From assembly GCA_030640805.1 (NCBI GenBank), contig DAOWIS010000007.1:1-46211 (forward strand): 46,211 nt of DNA, read 5' to 3'. Source of the DNA: a bacterium (lineage in GTDB: Bacteria > Patescibacteriota > Minisyncoccia > Minisyncoccales > DAOWIS01). The notes below the pieces were generated by a model. It did no database searches. It was not told the DNA's origin and saw nothing but the letters and a program-made list of their open reading frames with translations. A program made the translations under genes and the position numbers. Below are positions 1 to 45,823 of this stretch, piece by piece. Every line of letters begins with the position of its first letter. Position 1 is the stretch's first letter.

Positions 1-286
1 AAAATCCAAAATCCAAAATCCAAAATTATTTAAAAGATTTCCGGAATTAAAAAAGTTCAAAAAAAAAGGGATGATACCAGCTGCTTATTTGATTGAAGAA
101 TGTGGCTTAAAAGGTAAAAGAGTAGGCGGAGTTATGGTTTCTGAAAAACATTCAAATTTTATTATTAATTGCGGAAAAGGAAGAGCCGAAGATGTAATAA
201 TTTTAATTAGTTTAATTAAACAAAAAGTAAGAAATAAATTCGGAATCCAATTAGAGGAAGAAATAGAATATTTGCCTTTTATTTGA
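1..286 (+). CDS. murB: UDP-N-acetylenolpyruvoylglucosamine reductase, C-terminal part (5'-truncated by window edge)
   Basis: PAAYLIEECGLKG...VSEKHSNFIIN.G...DV..LI..IKQKV..KFGI.LEEEI is the MurB C-terminal signature; the frame is open from nt 2 and begins with heptamer-derived KSKIQNPK. Confidence 0.93.
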   Translation, partial: KSKIQNPKLFKRFPELKKFKKKGMIPAAYLIEECGLKGKRVGGVMVSEKHSNFIINCGKGRAEDVIILISLIKQKVRNKFGIQLEEEIEYLPFI

Positions 287-287
287 T

Positions 288-482
288 GGGACCCCGCCCT
301 CTTAATTGCTTCGTAATTACAAAGAGTGAAGCGACTGGTTAGCATTTTACGAGATAGCACAATGGCGGTGCACTCCCTGTGGTCGGGGCTATTCGCCCAC
401 TGCACCGCGAAAGATAACATTCTTTATTTAACACTTACAGACTTTATCAAAGTTCAAGAGGGTAAAATAAAAGCGGGGTTCT
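288..482 (+). ncRNA. candidate rod-like structured RNA (6S-RNA-sized) or nested palindromic element
   Basis: GGGACCCCGC(288-297) pairs with GCGGGGTTCT(473-482), CCTCTT pairs with AAGAGG, and a central GC-rich hairpin GCGGTGCA...TGCACCGC lies at about 366-408; G-U pairs favour the + strand. Confidence 0.3.
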
Positions 483-523
483 CAATTTCTTAACTAAATC
501 AAAGATTTAGAAGAAATTGGAAG

Positions 524-532
524 TTATCCACA
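524..532 (+). promoter_or_regulatory. perfect DnaA box upstream of an extended -10 (TGtTAAAAT, 552-560)
   Basis: TTATCCACA. Confidence 0.5.
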
Positions 533-661
533 GTTTTTTTCTTTTTAAAAATGTTAAAATATAAAAAGAACCGCTCACTTCGTTCGCTGTAATTACTTTG
601 TAATTAAGAAGAGAATTTATTATTAACAAATACACCGTATTTCTTTCGAAGGAGTTACTAA

Positions 662-738
662 ACCCCCACACCAAACGAGGACAGGGCGTCAAGAGCGCCA
701 AAATTAATGAAGTCGGTCCTCATTATGGTAGTGGGGGT
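662..738 (+). repeat. branched stem-loop / palindromic element in the leader of the small basic ORF
   Basis: ACCCCCAC/GTGGGGGT, ACCA/TGGT, GAGGAC/GTCCTC and GGCG/CGCC stems. Confidence 0.6.
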
Positions 739-780
739 AAAGGTCGATTATTGATAAAACTCTAATTTCTAATAAAAAAA

Positions 781-873
781 ATGGTAAAAAGAAAAAAGAA
801 AACTACCAAGAAGAAAACTACCAAGAAGAGAACCACCAAGAAGAAAACCACCAAGAGAAAGAGAAGAAGATAA
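781..873 (+). CDS. 30-aa Lys/Arg/Thr-rich (histone H1/protamine-like) small protein
   Basis: ATG...TAA gives MVKRKKKTTKKKTTKKRTTKKKTTKRKRRR, built from a 15-nt repeat; AAAGGTCGA leader motif upstream and terminator-like stem downstream; too short for the ORF track. Confidence 0.65.
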   Translation: MVKRKKKTTKKKTTKKRTTKKKTTKRKRRR

Positions 874-886
874 GTTTTCTTAAGGT

Positions 887-1003
887 AGACAACCCCGCCC
901 TCTATACTGTATTGCGTTTACTCTTTAATTATCTAAGAGAGAGAAGATATTTGTCACTTTTTAATAAAAACAACTACTGCTTAGGGGGCGGGGTTGTTTT
1001 TTT
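887..1003 (+). terminator. 18-bp GC stem with 77-nt loop followed by a T run (terminator-like or structured RNA)
   Basis: AGACAACCCCGCCCTCTA(887-904) pairs with TAGGGGGCGGGGTTGTTT(982-999), followed by T tract. Confidence 0.55.
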
Positions 1004-1037
1004 AAGAAATTATTTATAATATAAAATTGAAAAGAAA

Positions 1038-2044: not shown

Positions 2045-2081
2045 AGAAATATTTAATGAGAGAAATTTTTTAAGCGAAGAT

Positions 2082-4925
2082 ATGTTTTTTATTCCTAAAA
2101 TTTTTGGCGATGCCAATAAAAAATACTTAAAGAAAACTCAGTCCTTAGTTGATAAGATTAATAACCTCGAATCAAAATTCGAGAGCCAAGCACATAAAGA
2201 TTTATATGCTTGGCTAAAAGAAAAAACTGCCGAACTCAAAGAACGATTAAAAAAAGGCGAAACTCTGGACGATATTCTTCCAGAAGCCTTTGCTTTATTA
2301 AGAGAATCAGCCAAAAGAACTTTAGGTCAGCGACCATTTGATGTTCAGTTGATCGGAGGGATTGTTTTACATCAGGGTAAGATTGCTGAAATGAAAACCG
2401 GTGAAGGAAAAACTTTAGCGGCTACTATGCCGGTTTACCTTAATGCCTTAGAAGGAAAAGGCGTTCATGTAGTCACAGTCAATGATTATTTAGCCAAAAG
2501 AGATACGGTCTGGATGGGACAAATCTATCACTTACTTGGGTTATCAGTGGGATGTATTGTTCATGAAGCTGCCTATTTGTATGATCCGAAATATCAAGGA
2601 GAAAATTCCAAATCACAAATTCCAAATTACAAACAAATTCCAAATTTCAAATCCCAAACTAATCCAAAATCCAAAATCCAAAATCCAAAATCCAAAAATG
2701 GAGAGAGAGATGAAAAAAGGGATTTAGTTGGAGGATTTAAGGTTATTGAGAGCTATCTGAGACCAGTTTCCAGAAAGGAGGCCTATTTGGCTGATATTAC
2801 CCATGGAACCAATAACGAATTTGGTTTTGATTATTTAAGAGACAATATGGCTTATGATCTGAACCAGATGGTTCAGAGGGGATTCAATTTTGTAATTGTT
2901 GACGAAGTGGATTCAATTTTAATAGATGAAGCTAGAACTCCTTTAATAATTTCTGCCCCAGATTTTGAAAGCACCAAAATGTATGGAGAATTCGCCACAA
3001 TTATTCCCCGGCTTAAGGGAAGTATTGATTATAATATTGATGAAAAAATGAAAGCCGCGACCTTAACCGATGAAGGAATTTCCAAGGTTGAAAAAATATT
3101 GGGAATAGAGAATATTTATCAAGAAAAAGGAATAAAAGAGGTTCATCATTTAGAACAAGCCCTAAGGGCTGAAGTTCTTTTTAAAAAAGACAGAGATTAT
3201 GTGGTTAAGCCTGCCCGCAATGCTTCGCATAGCGATGCAGGCGGGGATGATCAAGTAATTATCGTGGACGAATTTACTGGTCGATTGATGCCCGGTCGTC
3301 GTTATTCGGGAGGACTTCATCAAGCTCTTGAAGCAAAAGAAGGAGTTAAGGTTCAACAAGAATCTCGAACCTTGGCGACTATAACTTTTCAAAATTATTT
3401 TCGAATGTATAAAAAGTTAGCCGGAATGACCGGAACTGCTGCCACCAGCGCAGAAGAGTTTTATAAAGTTTATAAATTGGAAGTGATAATTATTCCTACT
3501 AATCGACCGATGATAAGAGAAGATTTTCCTGATTTAATTTATAAAACCGAAAGAGGAAAAATTAAAGCTATAATTAAAGAGATTAAAGAATCTTATCAGA
3601 GAGGACAACCCGTCTTAGTAGGAACGACTTCTATTGAAAAGAACGAAAAATTGGGAGCTTTTTTAGAAAGAGAAGGAATTCCTCATCAGATTTTAAATGC
3701 AAAACATCATGAAAAAGAAGGAGAAATTATTGCTCAAGCCGGCAGACTTAAAGCAGTGACGGTGGCTACTAATATGGCTGGTCGGGGAGTAGATATAATA
3801 TTAGGCGGTAACCCACCTGATTCTAAAGAAGCCGAAAAAGTAAAAAAACTGGGCGGACATTATGTCATTGGAACCGAGAGACACGAAGCCTGGAGAATTG
3901 ACAATCAGCTTCGAGGAAGAACTGGTCGTCAAGGGGATGCGGGTTGTTCCCGATTTTTTATTTCTTTAGAGGACGATTTAGCCAGAATTTTTGGTGGAGA
4001 TAAAGTAAAATTTTTAATGGAACGACTGATTCCCGAAGATCAACCCATTGAAACCAAAATGGTTTCTAAGGTTATTGAATCAGCTCAGGCCAGAATTGAA
4101 GGTTATAATTTTGATTTAAGAAAACATCTTTTGGACTACGATGATGTTTTAAACAAACAAAGAGAAATTATTTATAAGAAAAGGAAAAACGTATTAGAGA
4201 TAAAAGATAAAAGCCAAGAGGCAAGTTTGAGAGAAATAGTTTGGGAAATGATAGAAAAAGAGATTAGAAAAATTTGTGGTTTTCATTTTGCCTCTGATTA
4301 TTCTGAGGATTGGAATTGCGAAGAGGTTAGTGAAATTTTTAAAACAATTTTTCCTGTTCCAGAAAATTTACATAGAAACCTTTTAATTATTAAAGAGGAG
4401 AAAGAAAACCTAAATCTAAAGCGAGAGAAAATAGTGAACTACATTTTTAAGTTAGCTGAGACCGCTTTTTTTAAAAAAGGAGAGGAATGGGGAGAAAAGG
4501 CAGAGCAAATTCAGAAAATAGTTTTACTTAATAGTTTAGATGTTCTTTGGCAGGAGCATATAGATTTTATGGAATATTTAAGAGATAGCGTGAGATTAAG
4601 GGCTTATGGGCAGAGGGATCCTTTGGTGGAATATAAAAATGAAGGTCATCGTGCTTTCAAGAAATTATTGGAAAATTGGCAGAACAGGGTAGTGGGGACA
4701 ATATTTAAAGTATCGTTGCAACAGCCAGTCGCGACATCGCCAATTCAAACCGAGAAACCAACTGAACCTCGTCAATATAATCAGCGGCAATCAGCTAAAA
4801 TCAGCATTGATCAACGTGCCAAGCCTAAGCTTGGCAGAAATGACCCTTGCCCTTGCGGCAAAAAAGACCCCAAAACTGGCAAGCCGATGAAGTATAAAAA
4901 ATGCTGCTATCCGAAATTTGGATAA
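2082..4925 (+). CDS. secA: preprotein translocase ATPase SecA with C-terminal SEC-C motif and repeat-derived insertions
   Basis: AEMKTGEGKT, VDEVDSILIDEARTPLIIS, ATNMAGRG, DNQLRGR, GRNDPCPCG; start taken at ATG 2082 because the longer ORF overlaps pdaD. Confidence 0.98.
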   Translation: MFFIPKIFGDANKKYLKKTQSLVDKINNLESKFESQAHKDLYAWLKEKTAELKERLKKGETLDDILPEAFALLRESAKRTLGQRPFDVQLIGGIVLHQGKIAEMKTGEGKTLAATMPVYLNALEGKGVHVVTVNDYLAKRDTVWMGQIYHLLGLSVGCIVHEAAYLYDPKYQGENSKSQIPNYKQIPNFKSQTNPKSKIQNPKSKNGERDEKRDLVGGFKVIESYLRPVSRKEAYLADITHGTNNEFGFDYLRDNMAYDLNQMVQRGFNFVIVDEVDSILIDEARTPLIISAPDFESTKMYGEFATIIPRLKGSIDYNIDEKMKAATLTDEGISKVEKILGIENIYQEKGIKEVHHLEQALRAEVLFKKDRDYVVKPARNASHSDAGGDDQVIIVDEFTGRLMPGRRYSGGLHQALEAKEGVKVQQESRTLATITFQNYFRMYKKLAGMTGTAATSAEEFYKVYKLEVIIIPTNRPMIREDFPDLIYKTERGKIKAIIKEIKESYQRGQPVLVGTTSIEKNEKLGAFLEREGIPHQILNAKHHEKEGEIIAQAGRLKAVTVATNMAGRGVDIILGGNPPDSKEAEKVKKLGGHYVIGTERHEAWRIDNQLRGRTGRQGDAGCSRFFISLEDDLARIFGGDKVKFLMERLIPEDQPIETKMVSKVIESAQARIEGYNFDLRKHLLDYDDVLNKQREIIYKKRKNVLEIKDKSQEASLREIVWEMIEKEIRKICGFHFASDYSEDWNCEEVSEIFKTIFPVPENLHRNLLIIKEEKENLNLKREKIVNYIFKLAETAFFKKGEEWGEKAEQIQKIVLLNSLDVLWQEHIDFMEYLRDSVRLRAYGQRDPLVEYKNEGHRAFKKLLENWQNRVVGTIFKVSLQQPVATSPIQTEKPTEPRQYNQRQSAKISIDQRAKPKLGRNDPCPCGKKDPKTGKPMKYKKCCYPKFG
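2603..2695 (+). repeat. in-frame heptamer array in secA
   Basis: AAATTCC/AAATCAC/AAATTAC/AAATTTC/AAATCCC then (AATCCAA)x5, encoding NSKSQIPNYKQIPNFKSQTNPKSKIQNPKSK. Confidence 0.9.
3210..3245 (+). repeat. in-frame 36-nt palindromic insertion in secA (PARNASHSDAGG)
   Basis: CCTGC-CCGCAATGC-TTC-GCATAGCG-AT-GCAGG-CGGG interrupts the conserved YVVK-DG.VIIVDEFTGR motif. Confidence 0.85.
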
Positions 4926-6502: not shown

Positions 6503-6761
6503 TAGAATTAATAAAAAGTTTTTTTGTTGTAAATTTTTTTAAATTTTTTTTTAAAAAACCTTACCGTTACTATTTAAACCAATTAATTTACTGAACATTT
6601 TCAAGAGACGGTCGTCCCTTAAAAATGTTCGATGATATTTGGAAGTTCAACTTCCTTTTTTTGTTTCGTGTCAATTGTCAACCGTCAAATGTCAATTGTT
6701 TTATGTTCCGTTTCATGATTTATTGTTAAATGTTCAACAATTTGCTAAAATTTAATTAATT

Positions 6762-11450: not shown

Positions 11451-13100
11451 ATGAACATCGTTTATCTCGCTGAGACGAGTTTTCGAAATAAAAGGACAAA
11501 ATTTGGAATTAAGATAGATGACCGTCGACGTCATATTTATTTAGTAGGAAAAACTGGCATGGGGAAAACCGTAATGTTAGAAAATATGGCCATTCAGGAT
11601 ATTCAAGACGGAAAAGGAGTGGCAGTAGTTGATCCCCATGGAGAGTTTGCCGAAAGGATGCTTGATTTTGTTCCAAGAGAAAGAATGAATGATGTAATCT
11701 ATTTCAACCCGGCTGATTTAGAGTTTCCTATTGCTTTTAATGTCATTGAGAAAGTTGATCCAGAATATCGATATTTAATTGCTTCGGGGATCGTCGGGGT
11801 TTTTAAAAAAATCTGGCCAGATGTTTGGTCTCCCAGAATGGAATATATTTTGCATAATTCGGTTTTGGCTCTCTTGGAATATCCTGGCTCAACCTTATTG
11901 GGAATAAATAGAATGTGAGCTGATAAGGATTACCGAGAAAAGGTAGTCAATAAAGTTATTGACCCCGGAGTTAAATCTTTTTGGTTAAATGAATTTGCTA
12001 AATATCCTGATAGATTTCGGGAAGAAGCAGTAGCCCCAATTCAAAATAAAGTAGGGCAGTTTATCTCCTCTCCTTTAATTCGTAATGTTATTGGTCAGAC
12101 CCATTCTACTATTGATATTAGAGAGGTAATGGATCAAGGAAAAATTTTGATTTTAAATTTATCTAAAGGGAGAATTGGAGAAGATGCCAGTCATCTCTTG
12201 GGCGCTTTGCTCATCTCTAAAATTCAGTTAGCGGCAATGTCTCGAGTAGACATTCCCGAAGAGGAGCGGCAGGATTTTTATCTTTATGTAGATGAGTTTC
12301 AAAATTTCGCTACCGAATCCTTTGTTAACATTCTCTCCGAGGCCAGAAAGTACCATTTAGATTTAATTTTAGCCCATCAATACATAACCCAGATGGAAGA
12401 GACAGTAAGAGATGCAGTATTCGGAAATATCGGAACTTTAATCTGTTTCCGAGTAGGAGCCGAGGACGCCGAATTTTTAGAGAAAGAATTTATTCCTTAT
12501 TTCTCGGCGCGTGATTTAGTTAATTTAACTAAATATAATATCTATATAAAATTAATGATTGATGGGGTATCTTCTCATCCCTTCTCGGCCTTAACTCTGC
12601 CGCCATTTCCTAAACTAAAAGAGAATTATCGAGAAAAAATTATAAGCCAATCTCGAGAACGTTATGGAACTTCCCGGAGAATAGTTGAGGAAAAAATTGC
12701 TGAGTGGACTCAGATAATAACCGAAGAACAAAAAATAACTAATGGAAAATCTGTCTACGAAGCCAATTGTTGGAAGTGTGGGAAAAAAACCTGGGTTCCT
12801 TTTAAGCCCGATGGTTTAAGACCGATCTATTGTAAAAAATGTTTAAAAGATAGAGAATCGGAGGACAGTCCTCCGGAAAAAACGGAGGACAGTCCTCCGG
12901 AGAAAAAATCTTCCTTAGAGATTTCTTTAGAGGAAGCCTTCAAAAAATATCCTCCAAGAGAAAAGAAAAAGAGAATAAGAAAGGAAGTTAATATTGGAGA
13001 TTTACGGGAAACGCTTAAAGAAACTTTGGGAGGAGATAAAAAGAAAAGAAAACCAGTAAAAAAGGGGACCCTGAAACCCGGCCAAAAAGTCAAATTTTAA
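11451..13100 (+). pseudogene. VirD4/TraD-like (HerA/FtsK clade) ATPase with C-terminal CxxC-x17-CxxC domain, interrupted by in-frame TGA at 11916-11918
   Basis: DRRRHIYLVGKTGMGKT (Walker A), LYVDEFQNF, LSEARKY; frame stays open through GINRM*ADKDYREK into the 12129 ORF. Confidence 0.85.
12859..12899. repeat. tandem pair (24-nt period) of the palindrome CGGAGGAC-A-GTCCTCCG, in frame
   Basis: encodes EDSPPEKTEDSPPEK. Confidence 0.85.
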
Positions 13101-13596: not shown

Positions 13597-13638
13597 AAAT
13601 GTCAAGTATCAAGTATCAAGTATCAAGTATCAAGTATT
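13597..13638 (+). repeat. heptamer array (AAGTATC)x4 plus degenerate units
   Basis: direct reading. Confidence 0.9.
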
Positions 13639-18175: not shown

Positions 18176-18598
18176 ATGGAGAAGGATAAATTTAATAATT
18201 TGGAGCAGGAAGTCCAGGTTTTAGAGAAGACCTTAGAAGAGAAGAAAGAAAAACTAAAAGAGATGGCTCCCGAGGAGAAAGAAGAGATGGTCAGAGAATA
18301 TACCAGGAAACGTCTGGAGAAATTAACCCCAAAACCAAAAAAAACAGAAATTCCGCCATCTCGGCCTACGACTATTCCTTCCCCGCCAGCCAAAAAAGTT
18401 TTGCCTTCTTATTTGGATACCCAGGACGAAGACACTAAAAAAATAGTTAAGGATTTGGTTAAACTTAGCGAAGAAAAGGGTCTGAAAACTGCTTTGAATA
18501 AAATTCAGAAAACCAACCAGCCCTTTCTTTTGGATGCCTTTCACGACGCTTTAACCTTTAAATTTCTTCAGGAATTAAGAAAAAAAGATGTTATCTGA
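18176..18598 (+). CDS. hypothetical protein coupled to the downstream ATPase
   Basis: 140 aa, overlaps the next start; C-terminal PFLLDAFHDAL. Confidence 0.8.
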   Translation: MEKDKFNNLEQEVQVLEKTLEEKKEKLKEMAPEEKEEMVREYTRKRLEKLTPKPKKTEIPPSRPTTIPSPPAKKVLPSYLDTQDEDTKKIVKDLVKLSEEKGLKTALNKIQKTNQPFLLDAFHDALTFKFLQELRKKDVI

Positions 18599-22543: not shown

Positions 22544-24415
22544 ATGACAGATTTATCTTCTCAACAAATTCGAGGGCAATTTTTAGATTTTTTTGAAAAG
22601 AAGGGGCATAAAATTGTACCTTCTTTTTCTCTTATTCCTCTTGACCCCTCGGTTCTTTTAACTTCGGCTGGAATGCAACAGTTTGTTTTGTATTTAGAAG
22701 GGAAAAAAGATCCTCTCAAAGATTTTGGAACTTGGTATTTGACTTCTTGCCAGAAGTGTTTTAGAACTGCTGATATTAATGAAGTGGGCGACGATATTCA
22801 CCATACTTTTTTTGAGATGCTTGGCAATTGGTCAATAGGTGAAGATTCCAATAAAGGTTATTTTAAAGAGGAAGCAATTGATTTGGCTTTAGAATTTTTG
22901 GTTGATACTTTAGAACTGGACAAAGACAAATTTTGGATAACTGTATTCAAAGGAGGAAATAATATTCCCAAAGATGAGGAATCAATAAAAATTTGGCAGG
23001 AGAAAGGAATTCCCAAAGAAAGAATAAAAGAATTTGGAATGGAAGATAATTTTTGGGGTCCGATTGGCGAAGTGGGAGTTTGTGGACCCTGTTCAGAAAT
23101 TCATTATGATAGAGGAAAAGAATTTGGCTGCCAGAAGCCGGATTGCAGACCAAATTGTAAAAAATGTAATAGATTTATAGAAATCTGGAATTTGGTTTTT
23201 ATGGAATACAATAAAAATGCCAAATGCCAAATGCCAAATGCCAAATGTTATAATTATACTCTTTTGCCGCAGAGGAATGTGGATACGGGGATGGGGATAG
23301 AGAGATTAACTGCAGTTCTCCAGAATAAACCCTCCGGCTATGAGACCGATCTTTTTTGGCCAATAATTAAGAATATCCAAAAGATTTCTTCGAAAAAATA
23401 CAAGGAAGAAAAAAGAATTTTTAGGATTTTGGCTGACCATCTACGAGGATCAGTTTTTTTAATTGGCGATGGAATTTTACCTTCTAATTTAGATAGGGGA
23501 TATATTTTAAGGAGAATTCTTAGAAGAACTATCCGTTATGCCAAAGTTTTAAATTTACCAGAAAATTGGTATGTTAGTTCTATAAAGAAACTTTCAGAGA
23601 TTTATGGCTCTACTTATTTTGAATTAAGAACAAAAGAAACAGAAATTATTACCGTTTTTCAAAATGAAGAAGAGAAATTTGGAAGGGCCTTAGATAAAGG
23701 ACTGTCGCAATTTGATAAGTTGCTTAAGCGGAAAAGGAAAAGCGGAAAACGAAAGATTATAAGCGGATTAGAAGGATTTAGTCTCTATTCAAGTTTTTCA
23801 GTTCCGATTGATTTAATTCAGGAATTAGCCAAGGAAAGAGGTTTCGAAATTGATATAAAAGGATTTGAAAAAGCCCTTAAGGAACATCAAAAGATTTCTC
23901 GGGCTGGAGCCGAGAAAAAATTTGGGGGATTGGGATTAGAAAAGGTAAAAGATAAAAGGCAAAAGGTAAAAGTTATTAAATTGCACACTGCTACTCATTT
24001 GCTTCAACAAGCCCTAAGAGATGTTTTAGGAGACCAAGTAAAACAGATGGGAAGCGATATTAATGAAGAGAGATTAAGATTTGATTTTTCTTATGATAAA
24101 AAATTAACCCCCGAGCAAATTAAAAAAGTGGAAGAAATTGTTAATCAAAAAATTAAAGAAAATCTACCAGTTAAAAAAAATGAAATGGATTATCAACAAG
24201 CCCTAAAATCCGGCGCCCTGGCTTTTTTCAAAGAAAGATACCCAGAAAAAGTAACTGTTTATTTTATTGGCGATTCTTTAGAGAAATCTTATTCCAAAGA
24301 AATCTGTGCTGGTCATCATATTAATCGGACCGGAGAGCTCGGCCAATTCAAAATCGTCAAAGAAGAATCCTCTGGCGCAGGCGTAAGAAGAATAAAAGCC
24401 ACATTAGAATCTTAA
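22544..24415 (+). CDS. alaS: alanine--tRNA ligase, short form without C-Ala
   Basis: SAGMQQF, HHTFFEMLGNWS, IEIWNLVFM, DTGMGIER, HTATHLL, SSGAGVRRI. Confidence 0.97.
   Translation: MTDLSSQQIRGQFLDFFEKKGHKIVPSFSLIPLDPSVLLTSAGMQQFVLYLEGKKDPLKDFGTWYLTSCQKCFRTADINEVGDDIHHTFFEMLGNWSIGEDSNKGYFKEEAIDLALEFLVDTLELDKDKFWITVFKGGNNIPKDEESIKIWQEKGIPKERIKEFGMEDNFWGPIGEVGVCGPCSEIHYDRGKEFGCQKPDCRPNCKKCNRFIEIWNLVFMEYNKNAKCQMPNAKCYNYTLLPQRNVDTGMGIERLTAVLQNKPSGYETDLFWPIIKNIQKISSKKYKEEKRIFRILADHLRGSVFLIGDGILPSNLDRGYILRRILRRTIRYAKVLNLPENWYVSSIKKLSEIYGSTYFELRTKETEIITVFQNEEEKFGRALDKGLSQFDKLLKRKRKSGKRKIISGLEGFSLYSSFSVPIDLIQELAKERGFEIDIKGFEKALKEHQKISRAGAEKKFGGLGLEKVKDKRQKVKVIKLHTATHLLQQALRDVLGDQVKQMGSDINEERLRFDFSYDKKLTPEQIKKVEEIVNQKIKENLPVKKNEMDYQQALKSGALAFFKERYPEKVTVYFIGDSLEKSYSKEICAGHHINRTGELGQFKIVKEESSGAGVRRIKATLES
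23215..23249 (+). repeat. in-frame heptamer array (AAATGCC)x4 in alaS
   Basis: encodes NAKCQMPNAKC between EIWNLVFMEYN and LPQRNVDTGMG. Confidence 0.92.
23940..23974 (+). repeat. in-frame heptamer array AAAAG(GT/AT/GC/GT/TT) in alaS
   Basis: encodes KVKDKRQKVKV just before HTATH. Confidence 0.8.
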
Positions 24416-27734: not shown

Positions 27735-27893
27735 GCGATTGCCTTCGGCAATCTAAATTAAAAATTCAAAGTGAAAAGTTAAAAATTACAATTTACAATT
27801 CAAAATTAATTAAATTTAAATATTTTTAAATTTCGTTTCGTCATTTTGCACTTTACATTTTGCATTTTGCATTTGACTGAGCGAAGCGAGGGA
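27735..27893. repeat. capped inverted heptamer element (rpmJ-rpsM spacer)
   Basis: GATTGCC-TTC-GGCAATC cap, A-rich 7-mers, inverted (CATTTTG)n, GACTGAGCGAAGCGAGGGA cap. Confidence 0.8.
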
Positions 27894-28285: not shown

Positions 28286-28420
28286 GCGCTTCGCCAAATG
28301 CCAAATGACAAATGGCAAATTCAAAATTACAATTCAAAATTTGAAATTTTTAATTTTACATTGTAATTTTGCATTTTTCACTTTGAATTTTTAATTTGAC
28401 CGAGACCGAAGGTCGAGGAA
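28286..28420. repeat. capped inverted heptamer element (rpsM-rpsK spacer)
   Basis: GCGCTTCGC, CAAATGC/CAAATGA/CAAATGG..., inverted T-rich units, GACCGAGACCGAAGGTCGAGGAA. Confidence 0.82.
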
Positions 28421-28422
28421 AC

Positions 28423-28878
28423 ATGGGGAAAAAGAGAATCATTAAAAAAACCGAAGAAGAGATTTTAAAAGAGAAAGAAAAATTAGAATCTGCTTTTAAG
28501 AAAGGAGGAGAGTTAAAAAAAATCTCTAGATCTATCTATAAAGGGAGAATTTATATTAAAGCAAGCTATAATAATATTATCATAACTCTTACTGATCAAA
28601 AGGGTGATGTTTTGTCTTGGAGTAGCGCAGGAAGTATTGGTTTTAAAGGGACCAAAAAATCTACTCCTTTTGCTGCTGGTCGGGTGGCAGCAATCTTAGC
28701 CGAGAAAGCAAAAAAGATAGGCGTTCGAGAAGTCCAGATTTTTATAAAGGGGATAGGAAGCGGGAGAGATTCGGCTGTTCGATCTTTAGCTAATTCAGGA
28801 ATTAATATAATTTCTATTAAAGACATAACCCCTATTCCACATGGGGGGTGTAGACCTCCAAAAGTCCGACGAGTGTAA
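28423..28878 (+). CDS. rpsK: 30S ribosomal protein S11
   Basis: ASYNN.IIT.TD..G, GFKG.KKSTPFAA, DITPIPH.GCRPPK.RRV. Confidence 0.98.
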   Translation: MGKKRIIKKTEEEILKEKEKLESAFKKGGELKKISRSIYKGRIYIKASYNNIIITLTDQKGDVLSWSSAGSIGFKGTKKSTPFAAGRVAAILAEKAKKIGVREVQIFIKGIGSGRDSAVRSLANSGINIISIKDITPIPHGGCRPPKVRRV

Positions 28879-29630: not shown

Positions 29631-29710
29631 AATTTTCAATTTTCAATTCCCAATTTTAAAATTAAATCATTAAAAATTCATTAGAAATTAGAAATTGGAA
29701 ATTAGAAATT
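29631..29710. repeat. inverted heptamer element (rpsD-rpoA spacer)
   Basis: (AATTTTC)n ... (AGAAATT)x4, one unit GGAAATT. Confidence 0.88.
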
Positions 29711-30870: not shown

Positions 30871-30873
30871 TAA

Positions 30874-30972
30874 AATTTTCAATTCTCAATTTTCAATCAA
30901 TTTTTAATTTTTAAATTTTAAAATTAAGTCATTGAAAATTCATTAGAAATTAGAAATTAGAAATTAGAAATT
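30874..30972. repeat. inverted heptamer element (rplQ-rplM spacer)
   Basis: (AATTYTC)x3 ... (AGAAATT)x4; same core as 29631-29710. Confidence 0.88.
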
Positions 30973-30981
30973 ATTAGTTCT

Positions 30982-31341
30982 ATGGAGCATAAAACTCACA
31001 CAATTGATGCTTCCGGAAAGATTTTAGGAAAATTAGCAGTAGAAGTGGCTATATTATTAAGGGGGAAACATAAACCTGATTTTTCTCCTAATAAAGACAT
31101 AGGAGACTTTGTTGAAATAATTAACATAGAGAAGATTAAATTTAGTGGAAAAAAGTTTGAGCAAAAAGTTTATTGGCATCATACTGGATATCCGGGCGGA
31201 ATAAAATCCCAGACTCTTAAAGAATTATTTGAAAAGAATCCCCAAAAAGTTTTTATAAAAGCAGTAAAAGGAATGTTGCCAAAAAATAAATTAGCAGCAA
31301 AACAAATTAAGAGATTAAGAATCATGAATCATGAATCATGA
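30982..31341 (+). CDS. rplM: 50S ribosomal protein L13, short form
   Basis: IDA.GK.LG.LA..VA..LRGKHKP.F.P..D.GD.V, Y.HHTGYPGG.K, AVKGMLPKNKL. Confidence 0.97.
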   Translation: MEHKTHTIDASGKILGKLAVEVAILLRGKHKPDFSPNKDIGDFVEIINIEKIKFSGKKFEQKVYWHHTGYPGGIKSQTLKELFEKNPQKVFIKAVKGMLPKNKLAAKQIKRLRIMNHES

Positions 31342-31360
31342 AATATGGAACATGAAACAG
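31319..31360 (+). repeat. heptamer array spanning the rplM stop and rpsI start
   Basis: GAATCATx3, GAAATAT, GGAACAT, GAAACAG. Confidence 0.88.
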
Positions 31361-31894
31361 AAAACTAAGAAAACTATTACAAAGAAAAAAATTACTAAGA
31401 AAAAAGTGGTAAAAGTAGTAAAGAAGAAGAAAGTTGTTGCCAAGAAGCCCAAAAAGAAAGCTCCTTTAAAGAAGCCCAAAGTTAAAGTTTTAAAGAAAAA
31501 GCCGGACCGGTATTTTGAGGCGGTTGGCAGAAGAAAAACTAGCATAGCCAGAGTTCGGCTTTTTACCCGGGGAGAAAAAATATTTTTGGTTAACGATAAA
31601 AATTTAAAAGAATATTTTCCTGTCTTTGAACTTCAGCAAATTGTCGTTGCTTCTTTAAGAAAAATGAAAAGTTTGGAGAAGTTTAGAGTTTCGATTAAGG
31701 TAAAAGGAGGAGGAATAAGAGCTCAAGCTGAAGCCATCCGTCATGCTACAGCCAGGGCTTTAGTAAAATTTAACCCTAATTTTAAAAAGAGATTAAAAAA
31801 AGCCGGCTATCTAACTCGGGATTCCCGAATGAAAGAAAGAAAAAAATTCGGTCTCAAAAAAGCCCGCCGTGCCCCCCAGTGGCAGAAAAGATAA
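31352..31894 (+). CDS. rpsI: 30S ribosomal protein S9 with Lys-rich N-terminal extension
   Basis: AVGRRKTS.ARVRL, GGG...QAEAIRH, LTRD.RMKERKKFGL.KARRAPQW.KR; start could also be 31331. Confidence 0.97.
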   Translation: MKQKTKKTITKKKITKKKVVKVVKKKKVVAKKPKKKAPLKKPKVKVLKKKPDRYFEAVGRRKTSIARVRLFTRGEKIFLVNDKNLKEYFPVFELQQIVVASLRKMKSLEKFRVSIKVKGGGIRAQAEAIRHATARALVKFNPNFKKRLKKAGYLTRDSRMKERKKFGLKKARRAPQWQKR

Positions 31895-38544: not shown

Positions 38545-39810
38545 ATGAACGAGAGATTTGTAATTGAAGGGGGGAGACCATTAGAAGGCACAGTTGAGAT
38601 AAGCGGCTATAAGAACGCGGCTGGGCCGATTCTGGCTGCCACCTTACTTACTAACCAAAAGTGTATTATTGATAATTTGCCTCAAGTTGAAGATGTTTTT
38701 AACTGTCTGAAGGTCTTAAAGGGTATAGGAGTAAAGATAAATCAATTAGAAAAGAGAAAATTTGAAATTGAAGCCGGCGCTGAAGTCGATCCATCTAAAA
38801 TGAATCCTGATTTAATCGGCAGGACCAGAATGTCGGTTTTATTAATGGGTGCTTTACTTCCCCGGTTTAAAGATTTTAAAATTTCCCGACCCGGGGGAGA
38901 TAAAATCGGTCTGCGACCTATTACTACTCATCTTAACGCCTTAGAAAAATTAGGAGCCAAAATTAAAGAAGAAGGAGATTTTTATCATTTTAACTGCGCA
39001 AATTTAAAAGGAAGAGAGATTGTTTTAAAAGAATTTAGCGTAACAGCTACTGAGAATTTAATGTTGGCCTCAGTCTTAGCCCAGGGAAAAACTATTATTA
39101 AAGGAGCAGCGGCCGAGCCTCAAGTTCAAGATTTAGGTGGTATTTTAAAAGAAATGGGAGCAATAATAGAAGGAGTAGGCACTCATACTGTTGTTATAGA
39201 AGGAATTGAAGAACTGCAGGGAGTAGAGCATAAAGTTATTTCTGATCCTTTAGAGGCCGGTACATTTATAGTGGCTAGCGCGATTACTCCTGGCCAGGTA
39301 GAAATAAAAAATATTATTTTTGAACACTTAGATTTATTTTTAGATAAATTAGAAGAAATGGGAGTTGATTTCAAAAAAAAATCTGATTCTCTACTAGTTA
39401 GATTTTCTCCTAAACTAAAAGCCGTTCATGTTCAAGCTCTTCCTTACCCTGGTTTTCCTACTGATTTAGTGCCAATAATTGTTCCAGCCTTAACCCAGGC
39501 CGAGGGTCGAAGCTTAATCCACGATCCTTTATACGAAAATAGATTTAATTATGTTCAAGAATTAAGAAAGATGGGAGGAGACATAGAGATAGTGGATCCT
39601 CACCGAGTTTTTGTCTTTGGCAAAACTCCTCTTTTTGGAAGAGCTATCGAGAGTTGGGATATTAGAGCCGGGGCTTCCTTAATTATCGCTGGGCTCATAG
39701 CCAGAGGCAAAACAGTAATTAATAATGTCTATCAGATTGATAGGGGATATGAAAGAATTGAAGAAAAATTACAGAACCTTGGCGCAAGCATAGAGAGAAT
39801 AAAATCCTAA
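38545..39810 (+). CDS. murA: UDP-N-acetylglucosamine 1-carboxyvinyltransferase (Asp variant)
   Basis: ISG.KNAA, PGGDKIG.RP, SVTATEN, PYPGFPTD, DIRAG, IDRGYE. Confidence 0.97.
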   Translation: MNERFVIEGGRPLEGTVEISGYKNAAGPILAATLLTNQKCIIDNLPQVEDVFNCLKVLKGIGVKINQLEKRKFEIEAGAEVDPSKMNPDLIGRTRMSVLLMGALLPRFKDFKISRPGGDKIGLRPITTHLNALEKLGAKIKEEGDFYHFNCANLKGREIVLKEFSVTATENLMLASVLAQGKTIIKGAAAEPQVQDLGGILKEMGAIIEGVGTHTVVIEGIEELQGVEHKVISDPLEAGTFIVASAITPGQVEIKNIIFEHLDLFLDKLEEMGVDFKKKSDSLLVRFSPKLKAVHVQALPYPGFPTDLVPIIVPALTQAEGRSLIHDPLYENRFNYVQELRKMGGDIEIVDPHRVFVFGKTPLFGRAIESWDIRAGASLIIAGLIARGKTVINNVYQIDRGYERIEEKLQNLGASIERIKS

Positions 39811-39974
39811 ATCCTAATTTCTAATAAAATTCCCAATGACAAAATCCCAATGTCAAATGAATGATTAAATATCAAATGACAAAATAATAATTTAATCATT
39901 TAGTCATTGGTCATTGATTTGACATTTGTCATTAGACATTTGTCATTTTGCTAGGCATTAGACATTAGGATTTA
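39802..39974. repeat. long inverted heptamer element (murA-mreB spacer)
   Basis: AAATCCT/AATGACA/AATGTCA units on the left; TGACATT/TGTCATT/AGGATTT on the right. Confidence 0.88.
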
Positions 39975-39985
39975 GAAGATATTTT

Positions 39986-40987: not shown

Positions 40988-42217
40988 ATGATTATAGGCA
41001 TAAATGCTTCACCAGCTTTTAAATTTCCCAGAACCGGCGTAGAAGAATATACTTATCAGTTAATAAATCATTTAACTAAATTAAAAGAAGCCGAATCTCA
41101 TCGGTTTTTTTTGTATATTGATGTTCGCGAGGCAACCAAACTTCAAAGTACCGGCTGTCCAAATCCCAGCGAGATTTGGCAGCCTACGTTCTCGGCCTGT
41201 CGCCCCCGACTAAAGTCGGGAGACCATGCCGACAGGCCTGCGAAAGTTACTTTGAAAGTTTGTTGCCTCGCTTTAGATCTCCCGTCGAATTTCATTCTTA
41301 AACCCCTATCAGCTCCCTTTTTTTGGACTCAAGGCAGATTGGCTTGGCAGTTGAGAAAAGATAAACCTGATGTTTTTTTTAGTCCTGGCCATGTTCTTCC
41401 CAGATTTCATCCAGAAAATTCAGTAGTTACTATTCACGGTTTAGAGTTTGAGAGATGTCCTCAGTTTTATCCATCTTTTCATAGATTTTATCTTAAAAAA
41501 GTAACAAAATATGCAGTTTCTCGGGCCAAAAAAATTATTGCTGTCTCAAATAACACCAAAAAAGATTTAGTAGAATTATATAAAGTCCCGCCTAATAAAA
41601 TTATGGTAATTTACCACGGTTTAAATAAAGAAAGAAATGTTTCAGGTTTCAGGTTTCATGTTTCATGTTTCAAGAAGTATATTCTCTTTTTGGGGACTAA
41701 AGAAAAAAAGAAAAATATCTCAAATTTAATTAAGGCCTTTGAAATTTTAAAAGATAGATACAAAATCCCTCATAGATTAATTTTAGCAGGGAGAGAACCC
41801 AATAAAAGATTTTACAAGCCCGAGAAAATAGAAGATATTTTAAAGAAATCAAGATATAAAAAAGATATTATTAATTTAGATTTTGTTTCCGAAGATAAAA
41901 AGAAAGAACTCTTTCAAAAAGCCGCTCTTTTTATTTATCCTTCTTTTTATGAGGGCTTTGGAATGCCGATTTTAGAAGCTCAAATAGCTGGTACACCAGT
42001 AATTACCTCCAATATTTCTGCTTTGCCGGAAATAGCCGGCGACGGAGCAATGAAAATAACCCCTCATAATATTGAAGAAATAGCCCAAGCAATGTATAAA
42101 ATTATAAGCGACAAAAACACTGCCCAAAATTTAATAAACAAGGGCTACCAAAACATAAAAAAATTCTCCTGGCAAACCTGCGCCCAAGAAACCCTTAGCG
42201 TTTTACTGACACCTTGA
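40988..42217 (+). CDS. glycosyltransferase family 4 with two in-frame repeat insertions
   Basis: TGVEEY, VVTIHGL, IIAVS..TKKD, YPS.YEGFGMPILEA...G.PVITS. Confidence 0.93.
   Translation: MIIGINASPAFKFPRTGVEEYTYQLINHLTKLKEAESHRFFLYIDVREATKLQSTGCPNPSEIWQPTFSACRPRLKSGDHADRPAKVTLKVCCLALDLPSNFILKPLSAPFFWTQGRLAWQLRKDKPDVFFSPGHVLPRFHPENSVVTIHGLEFERCPQFYPSFHRFYLKKVTKYAVSRAKKIIAVSNNTKKDLVELYKVPPNKIMVIYHGLNKERNVSGFRFHVSCFKKYILFLGTKEKKKNISNLIKAFEILKDRYKIPHRLILAGREPNKRFYKPEKIEDILKKSRYKKDIINLDFVSEDKKKELFQKAALFIYPSFYEGFGMPILEAQIAGTPVITSNISALPEIAGDGAMKITPHNIEEIAQAMYKIISDKNTAQNLINKGYQNIKKFSWQTCAQETLSVLLTP
41127..41271. repeat. 145-nt multi-stem palindromic in-frame insertion
   Basis: GCGAGGCAAC/GTTGCCTCGC, TTCAAAGTA/TACTTTGAA, CCAAATC/GATTTGG, GGCCTGTCG/CGACAGGCC, CCCGACT/AGTCGGG. 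Confidence 0.88.
41637..41671 (+). repeat. in-frame heptamer array A(T/G)GTTTC x5
   Basis: encodes NVSGFRFHVSCFK. Confidence 0.9.
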
Positions 42218-42296
42218 CAAACATAGACCCGATATGGTATAATAGAGGTAGAAAATGATGAGTTCTTTTAAAACCTATTAACCAAAAGAAAGGAGA
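42213..42296 (+). promoter_or_regulatory. promoter module nearly identical to 16414-16469, plus SD
   Basis: TTGACA 42214 (contains GT stop), TATAAT 42238, GTTCTTT, GAAAGGAG. Confidence 0.8.
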
Positions 42297-42303
42297 AATT
42301 AAG

Positions 42304-43092: not shown

Positions 43093-43132
43093 GAGAATAA
43101 AGAGAGCAAGCTAAATCATTCTCCAAAAATTC

Positions 43133-43169
43133 AAAAAACCTGTCTTTTAAAAAAAAGACAGGTTTTTTT
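43133..43169 (+). terminator. intrinsic terminator
   Basis: AAAAAACCTGTCTTTT...AAAAGACAGGTTTTTTT. Confidence 0.8.
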
Positions 43170-43178
43170 ATCCCAACT

Positions 43179-43347
43179 AATCTTACGAAGTTAAACTTCG
43201 TAAGATTTGGAAGAAAATTATGGAGGTTTGTAGAAAATTATGGAGGTTCAACCTCCATAATTAATTTGAACCTCCATAATTACTTTAAAATAGAAGAATG
43301 CGAAAAAGGTTCAAATCCCAGCGATCGCCGCAATTTGAACCTTTTTT
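43179..43347. repeat. cluster of palindromes
   Basis: AATCTTACGAAGTT-A-AACTTCGTAAGATT; AATTATGGAGGTT-C-AACCTCCATAATT with extra half copies; AAAAAGGTTCAAAT...ATTTGAACCTTTTT. Confidence 0.88.
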
Positions 43348-43516
43348 ATTTTGCTGTTTATTTTGCTGTCCTATTAAAATTAAAATTGCAATTATTTTTT
43401 TAATCCGATAAGATAACTATAAGATGATTACTGGAAAATTTTGAATTTTAACTCATTAAACGTATCTTTTTTATCTTTTTCGTATATTCGTAAAAGATTC
43501 GTAATTTCGTAGGAGT

Positions 43517-44638
43517 ATGAAAATTGCTTTGGTTCATGATTTTTTAGTGAGATTTGGAGGAGCAGAAAGAGTTCTGCTTTCTTTGCATAAACTTTTTCCC
43601 GAAGCTCCTATCTATACCTTACTCTACGAGCCATCAAAAATGGAGCCCTATTTTTCTGATGCCGAAGTTAGAACTTCTTTTTTAGATAAATACCCAGGAT
43701 TTTTAAAAAGAAAATATAGATATCTTTTACCTTTATTTCCGACAGCCATAGAATCTTTTAATCTTCGGGATTTTGATTTAGTAATTTCTTCTTCAGATGC
43801 TTTTTCTAAAGGGATTATAGTCAGACCTAAAACCCTTCATATTGCTTATCTTCATAGTCCAATGAGATTTGCCTGGGATTGGAATCAAGAATATTTAGGA
43901 GAGCAAAGAAAAGGAAAGATTTTAACCGGCATTATGAAAATTTTAGTTCATTATTTAAGAATTTGGGATAGAAATGCCGCCCAGAGACCCGATTTTCTGA
44001 TTGCCAATTCTCAATATACGGCCCAGCGAATCAAAAAATACTATCAAAGAGAAGCGAAGATAATCTACCCTCCGGTAAAAACCTCAGGCGCATCGCTAAG
44101 AAAAGCGTTTCACAGCGATATGCCTGAAGTAAAAGACAATTATTTCCTTATTATTTCTCATCTTTCTCCTTATAAAAAAATCGATATCGCCATAGAGGCC
44201 TTTAATAAATTAGAATTCCCTTTGATAATTATTGGCGAAGGCCCAGAAAGAAAACGACTTCAAAAAATCGCTAAATCCAATATTAAATTTTTGGGCTGGC
44301 AATCAGAAGAGATAAAAAATCAGTATTTAAAAAATTGCTTGGCTTTAATTTTTCCCGGAGAGGATGATTTTGGAATAACTATGGTAGAGGCAGCCAGTTT
44401 TGGTAAGCCAGTTTTGGCTTTAAGACAGGGAGGGGCTAATGAAATAATAATAGAAGGAGAAACTGGAGAGTTTTTTGATGAACCGGATGTAGTAGTTTTG
44501 GCTGATGGTGTAAGGAGATTAAAAGAAAATCTCAAAAAATACAATCCCAAAAAAATAAAACTCCAAGCCCAAAAATTCAGCCAAGAGAGATTTGAAAAAG
44601 AAATAAAACAATTTATAGATTCTAAATTTTCGTTTTAA
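43517..44638 (+). CDS. glycosyltransferase family 4
   Basis: MKIALVHD.L...GGAERVL, YLHSPMRFAWD, IANS, EDDFGITMVEA...GKPV. Confidence 0.94.
   Translation: MKIALVHDFLVRFGGAERVLLSLHKLFPEAPIYTLLYEPSKMEPYFSDAEVRTSFLDKYPGFLKRKYRYLLPLFPTAIESFNLRDFDLVISSSDAFSKGIIVRPKTLHIAYLHSPMRFAWDWNQEYLGEQRKGKILTGIMKILVHYLRIWDRNAAQRPDFLIANSQYTAQRIKKYYQREAKIIYPPVKTSGASLRKAFHSDMPEVKDNYFLIISHLSPYKKIDIAIEAFNKLEFPLIIIGEGPERKRLQKIAKSNIKFLGWQSEEIKNQYLKNCLALIFPGEDDFGITMVEAASFGKPVLALRQGGANEIIIEGETGEFFDEPDVVVLADGVRRLKENLKKYNPKKIKLQAQKFSQERFEKEIKQFIDSKFSF
44081..44130. repeat. in-frame palindromic insertion in GT4
   Basis: ACCTCAGGCGCATCGCT...AGCGATATGCCTGAAGT, encoding TSGASLRKAFHSDMPEV. Confidence 0.75.
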
Positions 44639-44674
44639 TTTTCCTTTAGTTTCCCGAGAAGTTCCTTATACACT

Positions 44675-44702
44675 CCTTGTACACGCATATGCGTGTACAA
44701 GG
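44675..44702. repeat. 28-bp perfect palindrome, copy 2
   Basis: CCTTGTACACGCAT/ATGCGTGTACAAGG. Confidence 0.92.
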
Positions 44703-44771
44703 GATATCTTCTTGGATATAGGAGCCGTTTTGGATTGCGACAAAACTCCAGATTTGTTATTATTTAATAAT

Positions 44772-45734
44772 ATGATTATTGGGCATCAGTCAATTTTGAG
44801 GATTTTGGAAAGAAGCATTAAGAAAGATAGTTTTTCTCATGCTTATTTATTTGCTGGTCCAGAAAAAGTAGGCAAGAGAACTATAGCCAAAGAATTTGCT
44901 AAATTGCTTTTAGCCAGTCATTCCTCAACCAAAATCGGCAAGGAATGCCATTGTCGTTCCTGCCAGGATATTGAAAAGGGGATTCATCCAGATTTTTTAG
45001 AAATAAAGGCCAAAGAAAAAGAAATTGGCATTAAGCAAATAAGAGATCTTAGGCGCTATCTTTCTTTATCTTGTCATCATGGTCGGGCTAAAGTATCTGT
45101 AATTGATAAGGCAGAAAAAATGACCAAAGAGGCTTCCAATGCTTTATTAAAAACCTTAGAAGAGCCAAAAGGAAGAACAGTTTTAATTTTGGTAACCTCT
45201 TTGCCTAATTTTCTTTTAGCGACCATTGTTTCTCGTTGCCAAATTATAAAATTTTTGGGAGTTTCTTCTTTTTTAATAGAGGAATCTCTTTTAAAATTAG
45301 GAGCCGAGAAAAAATTAGCCAGAGAAATTTCTAAAATTTCTCAAGGCAAGCCGGGAAAAGCCCTTGAATTTTTTAGCAATCCAGAAAAATTAAAAGAAGA
45401 AAAAAAACAAATGGAAGAAATAATATCTCTTTCCCAAAGAGATTTAGTGAAGCGGTTTGAAGTGGTAGAAAAAATTAGTCAAAATCCCAGCCAGATTAAA
45501 AATTTCCTTTCTTTGTGGAAAATTTGGTTTCGAGATTTATTTTTAGTAAAGCTGGGAATAGAAGAATTAACTTATTCTAATCTTGAAATAAACAAAGATA
45601 AAATTTTAAGACAATTTTCCTTATTTGATTTGATGCGGATAATCAAATTAACTGAAGATATAGATTATTTTATTTCTTTTACTAATGTTAATCCCAGGTT
45701 GGCATTAGAAGTACTTATGCTAAATGCCAAATGA
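44772..45734 (+). CDS. holB: DNA polymerase III subunit delta'
   Basis: IIGH, HAYLF.GP..VGK, C.C.SC....G.HPD, ASNALLKTLEEP, TIVSRCQ. Confidence 0.93.
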   Translation: MIIGHQSILRILERSIKKDSFSHAYLFAGPEKVGKRTIAKEFAKLLLASHSSTKIGKECHCRSCQDIEKGIHPDFLEIKAKEKEIGIKQIRDLRRYLSLSCHHGRAKVSVIDKAEKMTKEASNALLKTLEEPKGRTVLILVTSLPNFLLATIVSRCQIIKFLGVSSFLIEESLLKLGAEKKLAREISKISQGKPGKALEFFSNPEKLKEEKKQMEEIISLSQRDLVKRFEVVEKISQNPSQIKNFLSLWKIWFRDLFLVKLGIEELTYSNLEINKDKILRQFSLFDLMRIIKLTEDIDYFISFTNVNPRLALEVLMLNAK

Positions 45735-45823
45735 AAAATGACAAATGCCAAATTACAGTTCAAAATTTAAAATTTTTAATTTAACTGAGCCCGAGCGAAG
45801 CGAAGCGAGCGAGGGCGAAGGAA
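45722..45823. repeat. capped heptamer element spanning the holB stop
   Basis: AAATGCC AAATGAA AAATGAC AAATGCC AAATTAC...; AACTGAGCCCGAGCGAAGCGAAGCGAGCGAGGGCGAAGGAA. Confidence 0.82.

Follow-up and report, generated by a model that had tools for sequence, protein, structure and literature searches.

Heptanucleotide arrays in a Paceibacteria-like bacterium: probable slippage microsatellites that spread between sites and pass a reading-frame filter

The window analysed here, 46,211 nucleotides (nt) long, is an entire contig (C45) of a metagenome-assembled genome (MAG) of 720,921 nt in 49 contigs, with 34% G+C and a completeness rated at 97%. Its source is a bacterium of the Candidate Phyla Radiation (CPR; Patescibacteria), the closest named relatives of the genome being Paceibacteria/Parcubacteria. 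The genes of the window, as assigned by Pfam, are ordinary bacterial housekeeping genes (SecA, SecD, AlaRS, ribosomal proteins, RpoA, MreB), and neither Rfam families nor tRNAs were found in it. Scattered within and between these genes are tandem arrays with a 7-nt period, which form the subject of this report. Such heptamer arrays are in large excess throughout the genome and, on balance, they are probably heptanucleotide microsatellites of this CPR bacterium, shaped by slippage biased to 7 nt, by copying of arrays between sites and by a reading-frame filter.

Heptamer arrays and elements of the window

A sequence-only reading of the window had listed 14 separate 7-nt arrays. Tandem Repeats Finder (TRF) recovered every one of them, with coordinates agreeing within a few bases, and several of the intergenic ones proved to be copies of dispersed elements, here named E1 to E4, and not independent arrays. 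In the TRF output for the window, 29 of 105 rows have period 7. The features are listed below, with the strand where one is assigned and the source in brackets (ORF, open reading frame).

1-26: AAAATCC x3.7, perfect, at the contig edge (TRF)
2603-2697, plus strand: composite AAATTCC / AATCCAA array inside secA, encoding the in-frame low-complexity peptide NSKSQIPNYKQIPNFKSQTNPKSKIQNPKSK (TRF, Pfam SecA domains)
6669-6699: TGTCAAT x4.4, 79% matches, intergenic, upstream of secD (TRF, ORFs, Pfam)
13602-13637: TCAAGTA x5.1, perfect, occupying a 61-nt spacer that is flanked by two plus-strand ORFs (TRF, ORFs)
23215-23247, plus strand: AAATGCC x4.7, perfect, inside alaS, encoding NAKCQMPNAKC with a net insert of 7 residues (TRF, Pfam)
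23940-23972, plus strand: AAAAGGT x4.7, 84% matches, inside alaS, in a length-variable loop (TRF, alignment)
27755-27874: element E2, with an A-rich heptamer left arm, a loop and a CATTTTG-type right arm, in the spacer before rpsM (S13) (sequence, Pfam)
28293-28397: element E4, located between rpsM and rpsK, a GCCAAAT-type array with an imperfect palindrome after it (sequence)
29631-29710: element E3, first copy, located between rpsD and rpoA, an AATTTTC array, a loop and an ATTAGAA array that is nearly the reverse complement of the first (sequence)
30873-30973: element E3, second copy, in the rplQ-rplM spacer (sequence)
31319-31363, plus strand: GAATCAT/GAAACAT x6.6, reaching from the end of rplM into the start of rpsI (sequence, Pfam L13 and S9)
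39795-39985: element E1, a palindromic core plus outer arrays, between a gene of the EPSP_synthase family and mreB (sequence; TRF hit 39802-39948)
41639-41672, plus strand: GTTTCAG x4.9, in frame inside a family-4 glycosyltransferase gene (TRF, Pfam)
45717-45784: ATGCCAA x5.3 plus AAAATTT x3.3, at the 3' end of the DNA polymerase III delta' gene, an E4-like copy (TRF, Pfam)

The secA array lies within a segment that, in an alignment with PDB entries, is absent from most solved SecA sequences, and the array at 31319-31363 provides both the stop codon of rplM and ATG codons for rpsI. The palindromic core of E1 spans ~125 nt (39822-39952) and has heptamer-structured arms, the outer AAATCCT / AGGATTT arrays being placed symmetrically around it. 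The rpsI (31331-31894) and rpsK (28396-28878) ORFs, as called, carry N-terminal extensions of ~65 and ~49 residues before the Pfam domain; that of rpsI is Lys-rich and begins inside the heptamer array, and the true start codons of both genes are uncertain.

Excess of period 7 across the genome

When exact periodic runs with at least 14 matched positions were counted over the whole genome for periods 2 to 15, period 7 gave 72 runs and period 14 gave 13, all other periods giving 0-5; in ten order-3 Markov simulations the mean was at most 0.1 runs per period. Genome-wide counts of non-redundant TRF arrays with a score of at least 40 are 148 for period 7, 77 for period 14 and 31 for period 21, and the best other period is 12, with 56. 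Two related heptamers alternate in 46 of 67 period-14 arrays, and the same test on control periods is positive for 1 of 47 arrays (period 12), 0 of 29 (period 15) and 0 of 18 (period 18). Only 7 of 21 period-21 arrays derive from heptamers, some of the others being protein-level Glu/Lys-rich repeats. A 325-residue ORF (C12:9180-10154) may be recorded in this context, as it contains a 21-nt repeat (x19.4) that encodes a Glu/Lys/Arg-rich, heptad-like peptide and is a protein-level repeat, not a heptamer-derived one.

The excess of heptamer arrays is real, genome-wide and far above chance. As the sequence-only reading had supposed, period 7 is strongly enriched over a composition-matched null. 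Array density in this genome is 3.55 per 10 kb, and it ranges from 0 to 2.7 in those relatives of which at least 24 kb was sampled (the set of relatives comprises 30 genomes of 0.3-0.9 Mb from the same order, all in other families). In 598,661 nt of metagenome contigs from relatives, period 7 leads with 17 runs, followed by period 14 with 10 and by at most 5 for any other period; in 600,253 nt of more distant named genomes the lead is weak (5 runs for period 7, 8 for period 14 and 5 for period 8).

In-frame inserts in conserved genes

Gene calling was crude and accepted any ORF of 70 residues or more, which gave 741 ORFs and 87% coding sequence. By these calls, 83 of the 148 period-7 arrays are contained entirely in ORFs and another 59 fall mostly between genes, while arrays of period 7, 14 or 21 within genes number 130 and occupy 87 of the 741 ORFs. 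The hosts, named from reading of their translations (by Pfam in the window), are mostly core genes; among them are the aminoacyl-tRNA synthetases ValRS, IleRS, ArgRS, AlaRS, SerRS and LeuRS as well as PheT, and further core genes such as those for RpoB, RpoC, enolase, LigA, LepA, RecG, PNPase, MurC and SecA.

Read in frame, one heptamer runs through three phases and yields a 7-residue peptide, and KSQITNH, KFQIPNS, KCQMPNA, KFQVSGF and NQESGIR are examples of peptides encoded by the arrays. The AlaRS array is an insert of exactly 7 residues relative to all five full-length orthologues aligned (6 of 11 relatives' loci, read on the wrong strand, were left out), LepA is 14 residues longer than the commonest length class of 25 orthologues, and enolase is 6 to 9 residues longer than two solved enolases. 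We take the genic arrays to be in-frame insertions that lengthen variable loops by 7 or 14 residues. Consensus units free of stop codons on the sense strand were found for 66 of 82 genic arrays, compared with 37% per strand for intergenic units, and among perfect arrays 21 nt or longer, a copy number of 4 or 7 (1+3n) is seen in 30 of the 51 genic versus 5 of the 18 intergenic ones (Fisher p=0.03). A gain of 7 or 14 nt is a frameshift in an essential gene, so that the birth of such an insert would need three units at once or a ready-made cassette.

Intergenic arrays and dispersed elements

Per base, array density is several-fold higher between genes, where 40% of the arrays fall in ~13% of the genome, and 106 of 451 spacers (24%) carry an array. 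A reverse-complement array lies at most 150 nt away from 18 of the 59 intergenic arrays (10.6% in a control with the units of other arrays); among the genic arrays, only 2 of 83 have such a partner.

Elements E1 to E4 are AT-rich, 60-165 nt long and internally periodic at 7 nt. For E1, 12 copies in the genome can be aligned and have the palindromic core in common. Across the 31 genomes, ~14 long E1 copies with 79-99% identity were found, all in this genome, and matches in the 30 relatives reach at most 86 nt, mostly 25-60 nt; to judge from this distribution, E1 was amplified in this lineage only. For E2, E3 and E4, 10 or more partial copies apiece were found at other places in the genome. The second copy of E3 is 95% identical to the first over 59 nt, and the array at 45717-45784 is 90% identical to E4 over 61 nt.

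Among the elements folded, E1 is the sole clearly significant hairpin (-46.9 kcal/mol; z -6.35; 0 of 200 shuffles as good). The first copy of E3 (z -2.31) and E4 (z -2.26) were each equalled by 7 of 200 shuffles, and the second copy of E3 (z -0.68; 56 of 200) and E2 (z -1.21; 18 of 200) are not significant. Spacers in general, tRNAs and terminators included, fold better than mononucleotide shuffles, by a mean of -8.9 kcal/mol, and general spacer folding was rejected as a signal of arrays since the effect is not array-specific. Likewise, an all-versus-all blastn search of intergenic regions that linked 251 of 451 spacers was not accepted as defining one family, as AT-rich periodic DNA cross-matches.

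The sequence-only reading had asked whether orthologous spacers are filled in one genome and empty in another, and the ribosomal-protein operons show this pattern: spacers that hold elements are 97-111 nt long here, and at most of 25 relatives' loci the spacers are empty and measure 1-31 nt. The orthologous rpsD-rpoA spacer is 12-29 nt long in the nearest relatives, and one relative (L051) has its own palindrome, made of different heptamers, in the same spacer. A high lag-7 value for another locus in this comparison (L168) proved to be caused by masked N and was discarded. The related proposal of a small mobile cassette fits these dispersed, palindromic and apparently copied elements, while a dedicated writing enzyme, also proposed, was not identified in the searches described below. 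In the metagenome and genome collections searched, no relative exceeded ~63% identity in RpoA, so that precise empty sites and target duplications are not definable.

Other short palindromes that are not heptamer arrays are dispersed in the genome as well: CACGCATATGCGTGTACAAGG (15-19 copies), CTATTGAAGTCSGACTTCAATAG (9), ACGGAGAACSGTTCTCCG (9), CAAATCGCTGCGATCGCAGCGATTTG (8-9) and GGAGGTTSAACCTCCATA (7). A central S in these words means that both orientations are present, and window examples lie at 12852-12907 and 43210-43286.

Unit repertoire, concerted change and apparent copying between sites

With rotations and both strands merged, the 148 period-7 arrays represent 62 unit classes, while random sets, drawn 2000 times according to the heptamer frequencies of this genome, average 126 classes and never fall below 111; the units, described as unrelated by the sequence-only reading, thus form a restricted repertoire. 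Units that lie 25-50x above expectation include AAACATG, AAATCAC, AAACCTG and AATCAGG, and a tract of A3-A4 opens 60% of the units as compared with 34% of random genomic heptamers.

Comparison of loops in ArgRS (22 sequences) and LepA (26 sequences) shows that other families carry related but different heptamer units at the same place: AATTTCC in G013 (as in this genome), AAAATCC in G002, AAATGTC in G028, AAATCTC in G015 and AAGTTTC in G001. The loop lengths change among relatives in steps of roughly 7 residues. Within any one genome the units are alike, whereas other genomes have different ones, a pattern of concerted evolution. In 42 of 69 perfect arrays the array length modulo 7 is 3-5 (chi-square p=0.03), a bias characteristic of slippage-type boundaries, at which a short partial copy adjoins a complete unit. 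We count (i) the perfection of the arrays, (ii) the inserts in 7-residue steps and (iii) the units evolving in concert in favour of local slippage.

Four AAGTTAA arrays in different genes have in common their start, their frame and the change of an in-frame TAA to TCA or TCT. Six copies of a non-periodic junction word, TCACAAATCACAAACAAA, were counted; the peptide that it encodes, ITNHKQ, is shared by ValRS, RpoC and PNPase. These observations, along with the restricted repertoire, the amplification of E1 and the filled spacers, support copying between sites. We conclude that both slippage and inter-site copying act.

Origin of the arrays

In the interpretation that we put forward as probable on balance, the arrays would originate when strands slip during DNA synthesis, with a preference for a 7-nt register, in a lineage without detected MutS: MutS domain V (PF00488) was found in 0 of the 31 genomes of the order, the same search being positive in 11 of 14 control genomes. 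Slippage would expand short units of the type A3-4NNN(N) together with an adjoining partial copy of 3-5 nt, and would keep the arrays homogeneous, which is to say in concerted evolution. Arrays and composite cassettes would then be copied to new sites, a step for which there is partial evidence. Between genes, copied arrays would come to form the arms of the dispersed palindromic elements E1 to E4 and so fill operon spacers that are otherwise tiny; within genes, copying would account for identical irregular cassettes recurring across different proteins. Ectopic template switching, conversion between arrays or an enzyme acting on hairpins are candidate agents of this copying. Finally, as the genic arrays attest, changes within genes survive only where they are free of stop codons, comprise three units (21 nt, 7 residues) and fall in permissive surface loops, a filter that leaves essential proteins with low-complexity inserts of 7 or 14 residues.

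Several points weigh against this interpretation. The 7-nt register itself is left without an explanation, the polymerase idea discussed below being a published hypothesis and not a measurement, and simple stepwise slippage does not predict the birth of three units at once in an essential gene. A restricted repertoire and shared irregular cassettes are unlike local slippage acting on arbitrary sequence, and E1 has neither a defined target-site duplication nor a donor. The frame and boundary statistics reach p ~0.03 only and rest on crude ORF calls. Moreover, the AATTTCC x4 array in the ArgRS gene (C3:9587-11227) is identical at 29 of 30 nt to that of G013 (L102), a member of another family, whereas in the rest of ArgRS the third codon positions of identical residues agree in only 55% of cases; this identity could be due to constraint, to convergence or to re-writing at the level of DNA or RNA.

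It is tempting to speculate that an active process in Paceibacteria-like CPR bacteria copies heptamer cassettes between sites, including surface loops of essential enzymes, perhaps by template switching among arrays or by a hairpin-acting HUH enzyme, and keeps them homogeneous and conserved in nucleotide sequence over the divergence of families. The arrays would then not be passive microsatellites, but a lineage-specific writing system for DNA/RNA signals and peptide loops; we hold this to be doubtful.

A dedicated enzyme that writes or mobilises the arrays, be it of the HUH/Y1 type or one of templated synthesis, and that inserts pre-formed cassettes between and within genes, seems rather unlikely to us. 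Within its 0.72 Mb, the genome has three paralogous HUH transposase-like ORFs of 192-241 residues (loci L198, L199 and L200), which match Y1_Tnp (PF01797) above the Pfam cut-off:

C18:9016-9741, plus strand: Y1_Tnp paralogue
C18:2-580, plus strand: Y1_Tnp paralogue, cut by the contig end
C4:3754-4458, minus strand: Y1_Tnp paralogue

Their best NCBIfam match is the REP-associated tyrosine transposase (RAYT; REP, repetitive extragenic palindromic) family NF047646, and this match would agree with an enzyme acting on dispersed, partly palindromic elements such as E1 to E4, as would the identical irregularities in cassettes of several genes, the restricted repertoire and the nucleotide-level conservation of the ArgRS array. 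However, the NF047646 scores of 35-41 bits stay below the family cut-off of 80, and the C18 Y1 gene examined is flanked by a different sequence, the 25-nt GC-containing palindrome TCTATTGATTTCSGAAATCAATAGA (two copies upstream and one downstream, out of 13 dispersed copies), and by neither heptamer arrays nor E1 to E4; the other two Y1 genes had no flanking pairs in the scan. The Y1 genes and the 25-nt palindromes look like a separate REP/RAYT-like system. Y1_Tnp is matched in 18 of the 31 genomes of the order, but array density shows no association with Y1 transposase genes across 20 relatives (p=0.36), and two relatives without a Y1 match, G007 and G015, are rich in arrays (2.06 and 1.94 per 10 kb). 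The genome yielded no match to DDE, rve or TnpB-type genes either, and a search for reverse transcriptases (PF00078), one of the families that the sequence-only reading had named, gave 0 matches in a genome that is 97% complete. The absence of reverse-complement partners from nearly all genic arrays, and net inserts in multiples of 7 residues, as unit-wise expansion predicts, likewise argue against a dedicated enzyme. A link to TIGR02436 (bAvd-like) genes, raised in the same reading, was not found: array density is not associated with their presence across 20 relatives (p=0.15), and both TIGR02436 genes of this genome have arrays nearby, which is unremarkable because 24% of the spacers carry arrays.

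Selection for a function of the periodicity, with slippage providing the raw material, appears unlikely as well. The arrays might offer protein sites or phased A-tracts at 7-nt spacing, for instance for one OB-fold or cold-shock-type domain per heptamer or for a nucleoid protein, or intercistronic RNA hairpins might serve mRNA processing or stability. Binding of one heptamer per protein is discussed for CspB in the accessible part of PMC4679880, and the A3-A4 start of most units, the inverted pairing of intergenic arrays, the fold of E1, the precise placement of elements in operon spacers and the conservation of the ArgRS array at the nucleotide level all agree with a function. Against it, most relatives manage with spacers of 1-31 nt and no elements, shuffled sequences fold as well as, or almost as well as, three of the five window elements, units vary widely (62 classes), arrays in protein loops have no obvious role at the level of nucleic acids, and no binding protein was identified.

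That the arrays are artefacts of assembly, amplification or binning can be dismissed as most improbable, since, although the MAG consists of 49 contigs and the window begins inside an array, reading frames stay open through arrays in full-length conserved genes, arrays recur at orthologous loops of independently assembled relatives, period 7 dominates the relatives' unrelated metagenome contigs and contig ends are not enriched in arrays (8 of 98 ends).

Relation to known repeats

The core phenomenon, a bias towards heptamers, is already known in bacteria. According to the accessible text of PMC4692102 and PMC4679880, Mrazek et al. (2007) found heptanucleotides to be the most abundant long simple-sequence repeats (SSRs) in many bacterial genomes and proposed that 7 nt is the segment of DNA held by the polymerase, which would favour slippage. 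The claim of the sequence-only reading that ordinary slippage would not favour one period is at odds with this attribution of the heptamer excess to polymerase slippage. The same survey, as cited in PMC4679880, found units in multiples of three to be favoured in coding regions, and individual heptamer systems have been reported from Calothrix/Nostoc, Xanthomonas and Beggiatoaceae (PMC4692102 and PMC4679880, to the extent of their accessible text).

The arrays of the present genome resemble the heptanucleotide SSRs of Mrazek, Guo and Shah (2007) and of cyanobacteria, as excerpted in those sources, in that 7 nt is favoured, many units occur per genome, the arrays are short, enriched between genes and sometimes paired in inverse orientation, and slippage is the proposed cause. 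Set against what is given there of the 2007 SSRs, they differ in (i) belonging to a CPR phylum and a tiny genome, at very high density (148 arrays in 0.72 Mb), (ii) lying inside genes in 56% of cases, with three-unit in-frame inserts in essential proteins, and (iii) persisting at orthologous loops across families, many intergenic arrays being arms of palindromic elements. With the TAACTGA repeats of Beggiatoaceae and the GGGAATC / GGGGAYT repeats of Xanthomonas/Nostoc, as far as the accessible text of PMC4679880 and PMC4692102 describes them, they share intergenic tandem heptamers in 2-6 or more copies, occasional mixed heptamers or inverted pairs, and spacers that are shorter and repeat-free in relatives. 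Those systems are presented there as having one dominant unit family (TAACTGA, or G-rich and quadruplex-forming); in contrast, the units here fall into 62 classes, are A/T-rich with A3-4 tracts, lack G-runs and are heavily used in coding sequence.

Comparison with palindromic repeats leads to a similarly mixed result. REP/REPIN sequences with their RAYT transposases, and miniature inverted-repeat transposable elements (MITEs), are short palindromic elements dispersed in intergenic spacers. E1 is like them in its copy number, the identity among its copies, its stable hairpin, its inverted arms and the presence of RAYT-like Y1 genes in the genome; unlike them, E1 to E4 are AT-rich, longer and built on a 7-nt period, they are not seen flanking Y1 genes, and no terminal inverted repeat with target-site duplication is defined (none was evident when the 12 E1 copies were aligned with their flanks). 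Rickettsia palindromic elements are inserted in frame in protein genes, and the units of Borg tandem repeats within ORFs are reportedly multiples of three. The genic arrays differ in being non-palindromic and only ~21-60 nt long, and in that the heptamer is not a multiple of three and its three reading phases are used in turn. With both they have in common in-frame repetitive DNA and segments of low complexity or disorder (for Borgs, see the accessible part of PMC9879509).

A literature search found nothing relevant on heptamer or simple-sequence repeats of this kind in CPR/Patescibacteria, and we did not find described the combination of a CPR lineage, extreme density, three-unit in-frame inserts at orthologous loops and palindromic elements with heptamer arms. 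The bacterial 7-nt bias has been noted since 2007 and never explained mechanistically; with ~150 clear arrays in 0.72 Mb and no detectable MutS, the present genome offers a compact natural system in which to test it. A unit that is not a multiple of three here colonises essential genes three units at a time, as seen in the 7- or 14-residue inserts of aminoacyl-tRNA synthetases, RNA polymerase, enolase and SecA. For the annotation of CPR genomes, the arrays account for odd low-complexity loops, for long spacers in ribosomal-protein operons and for a set of dispersed palindromic elements.

Further observation in the window

Amid housekeeping surroundings, a 784-residue ORF at 18588-20942 of the window is weakly matched by ATPase domains of the type IV secretion coupling-protein / TraG type.

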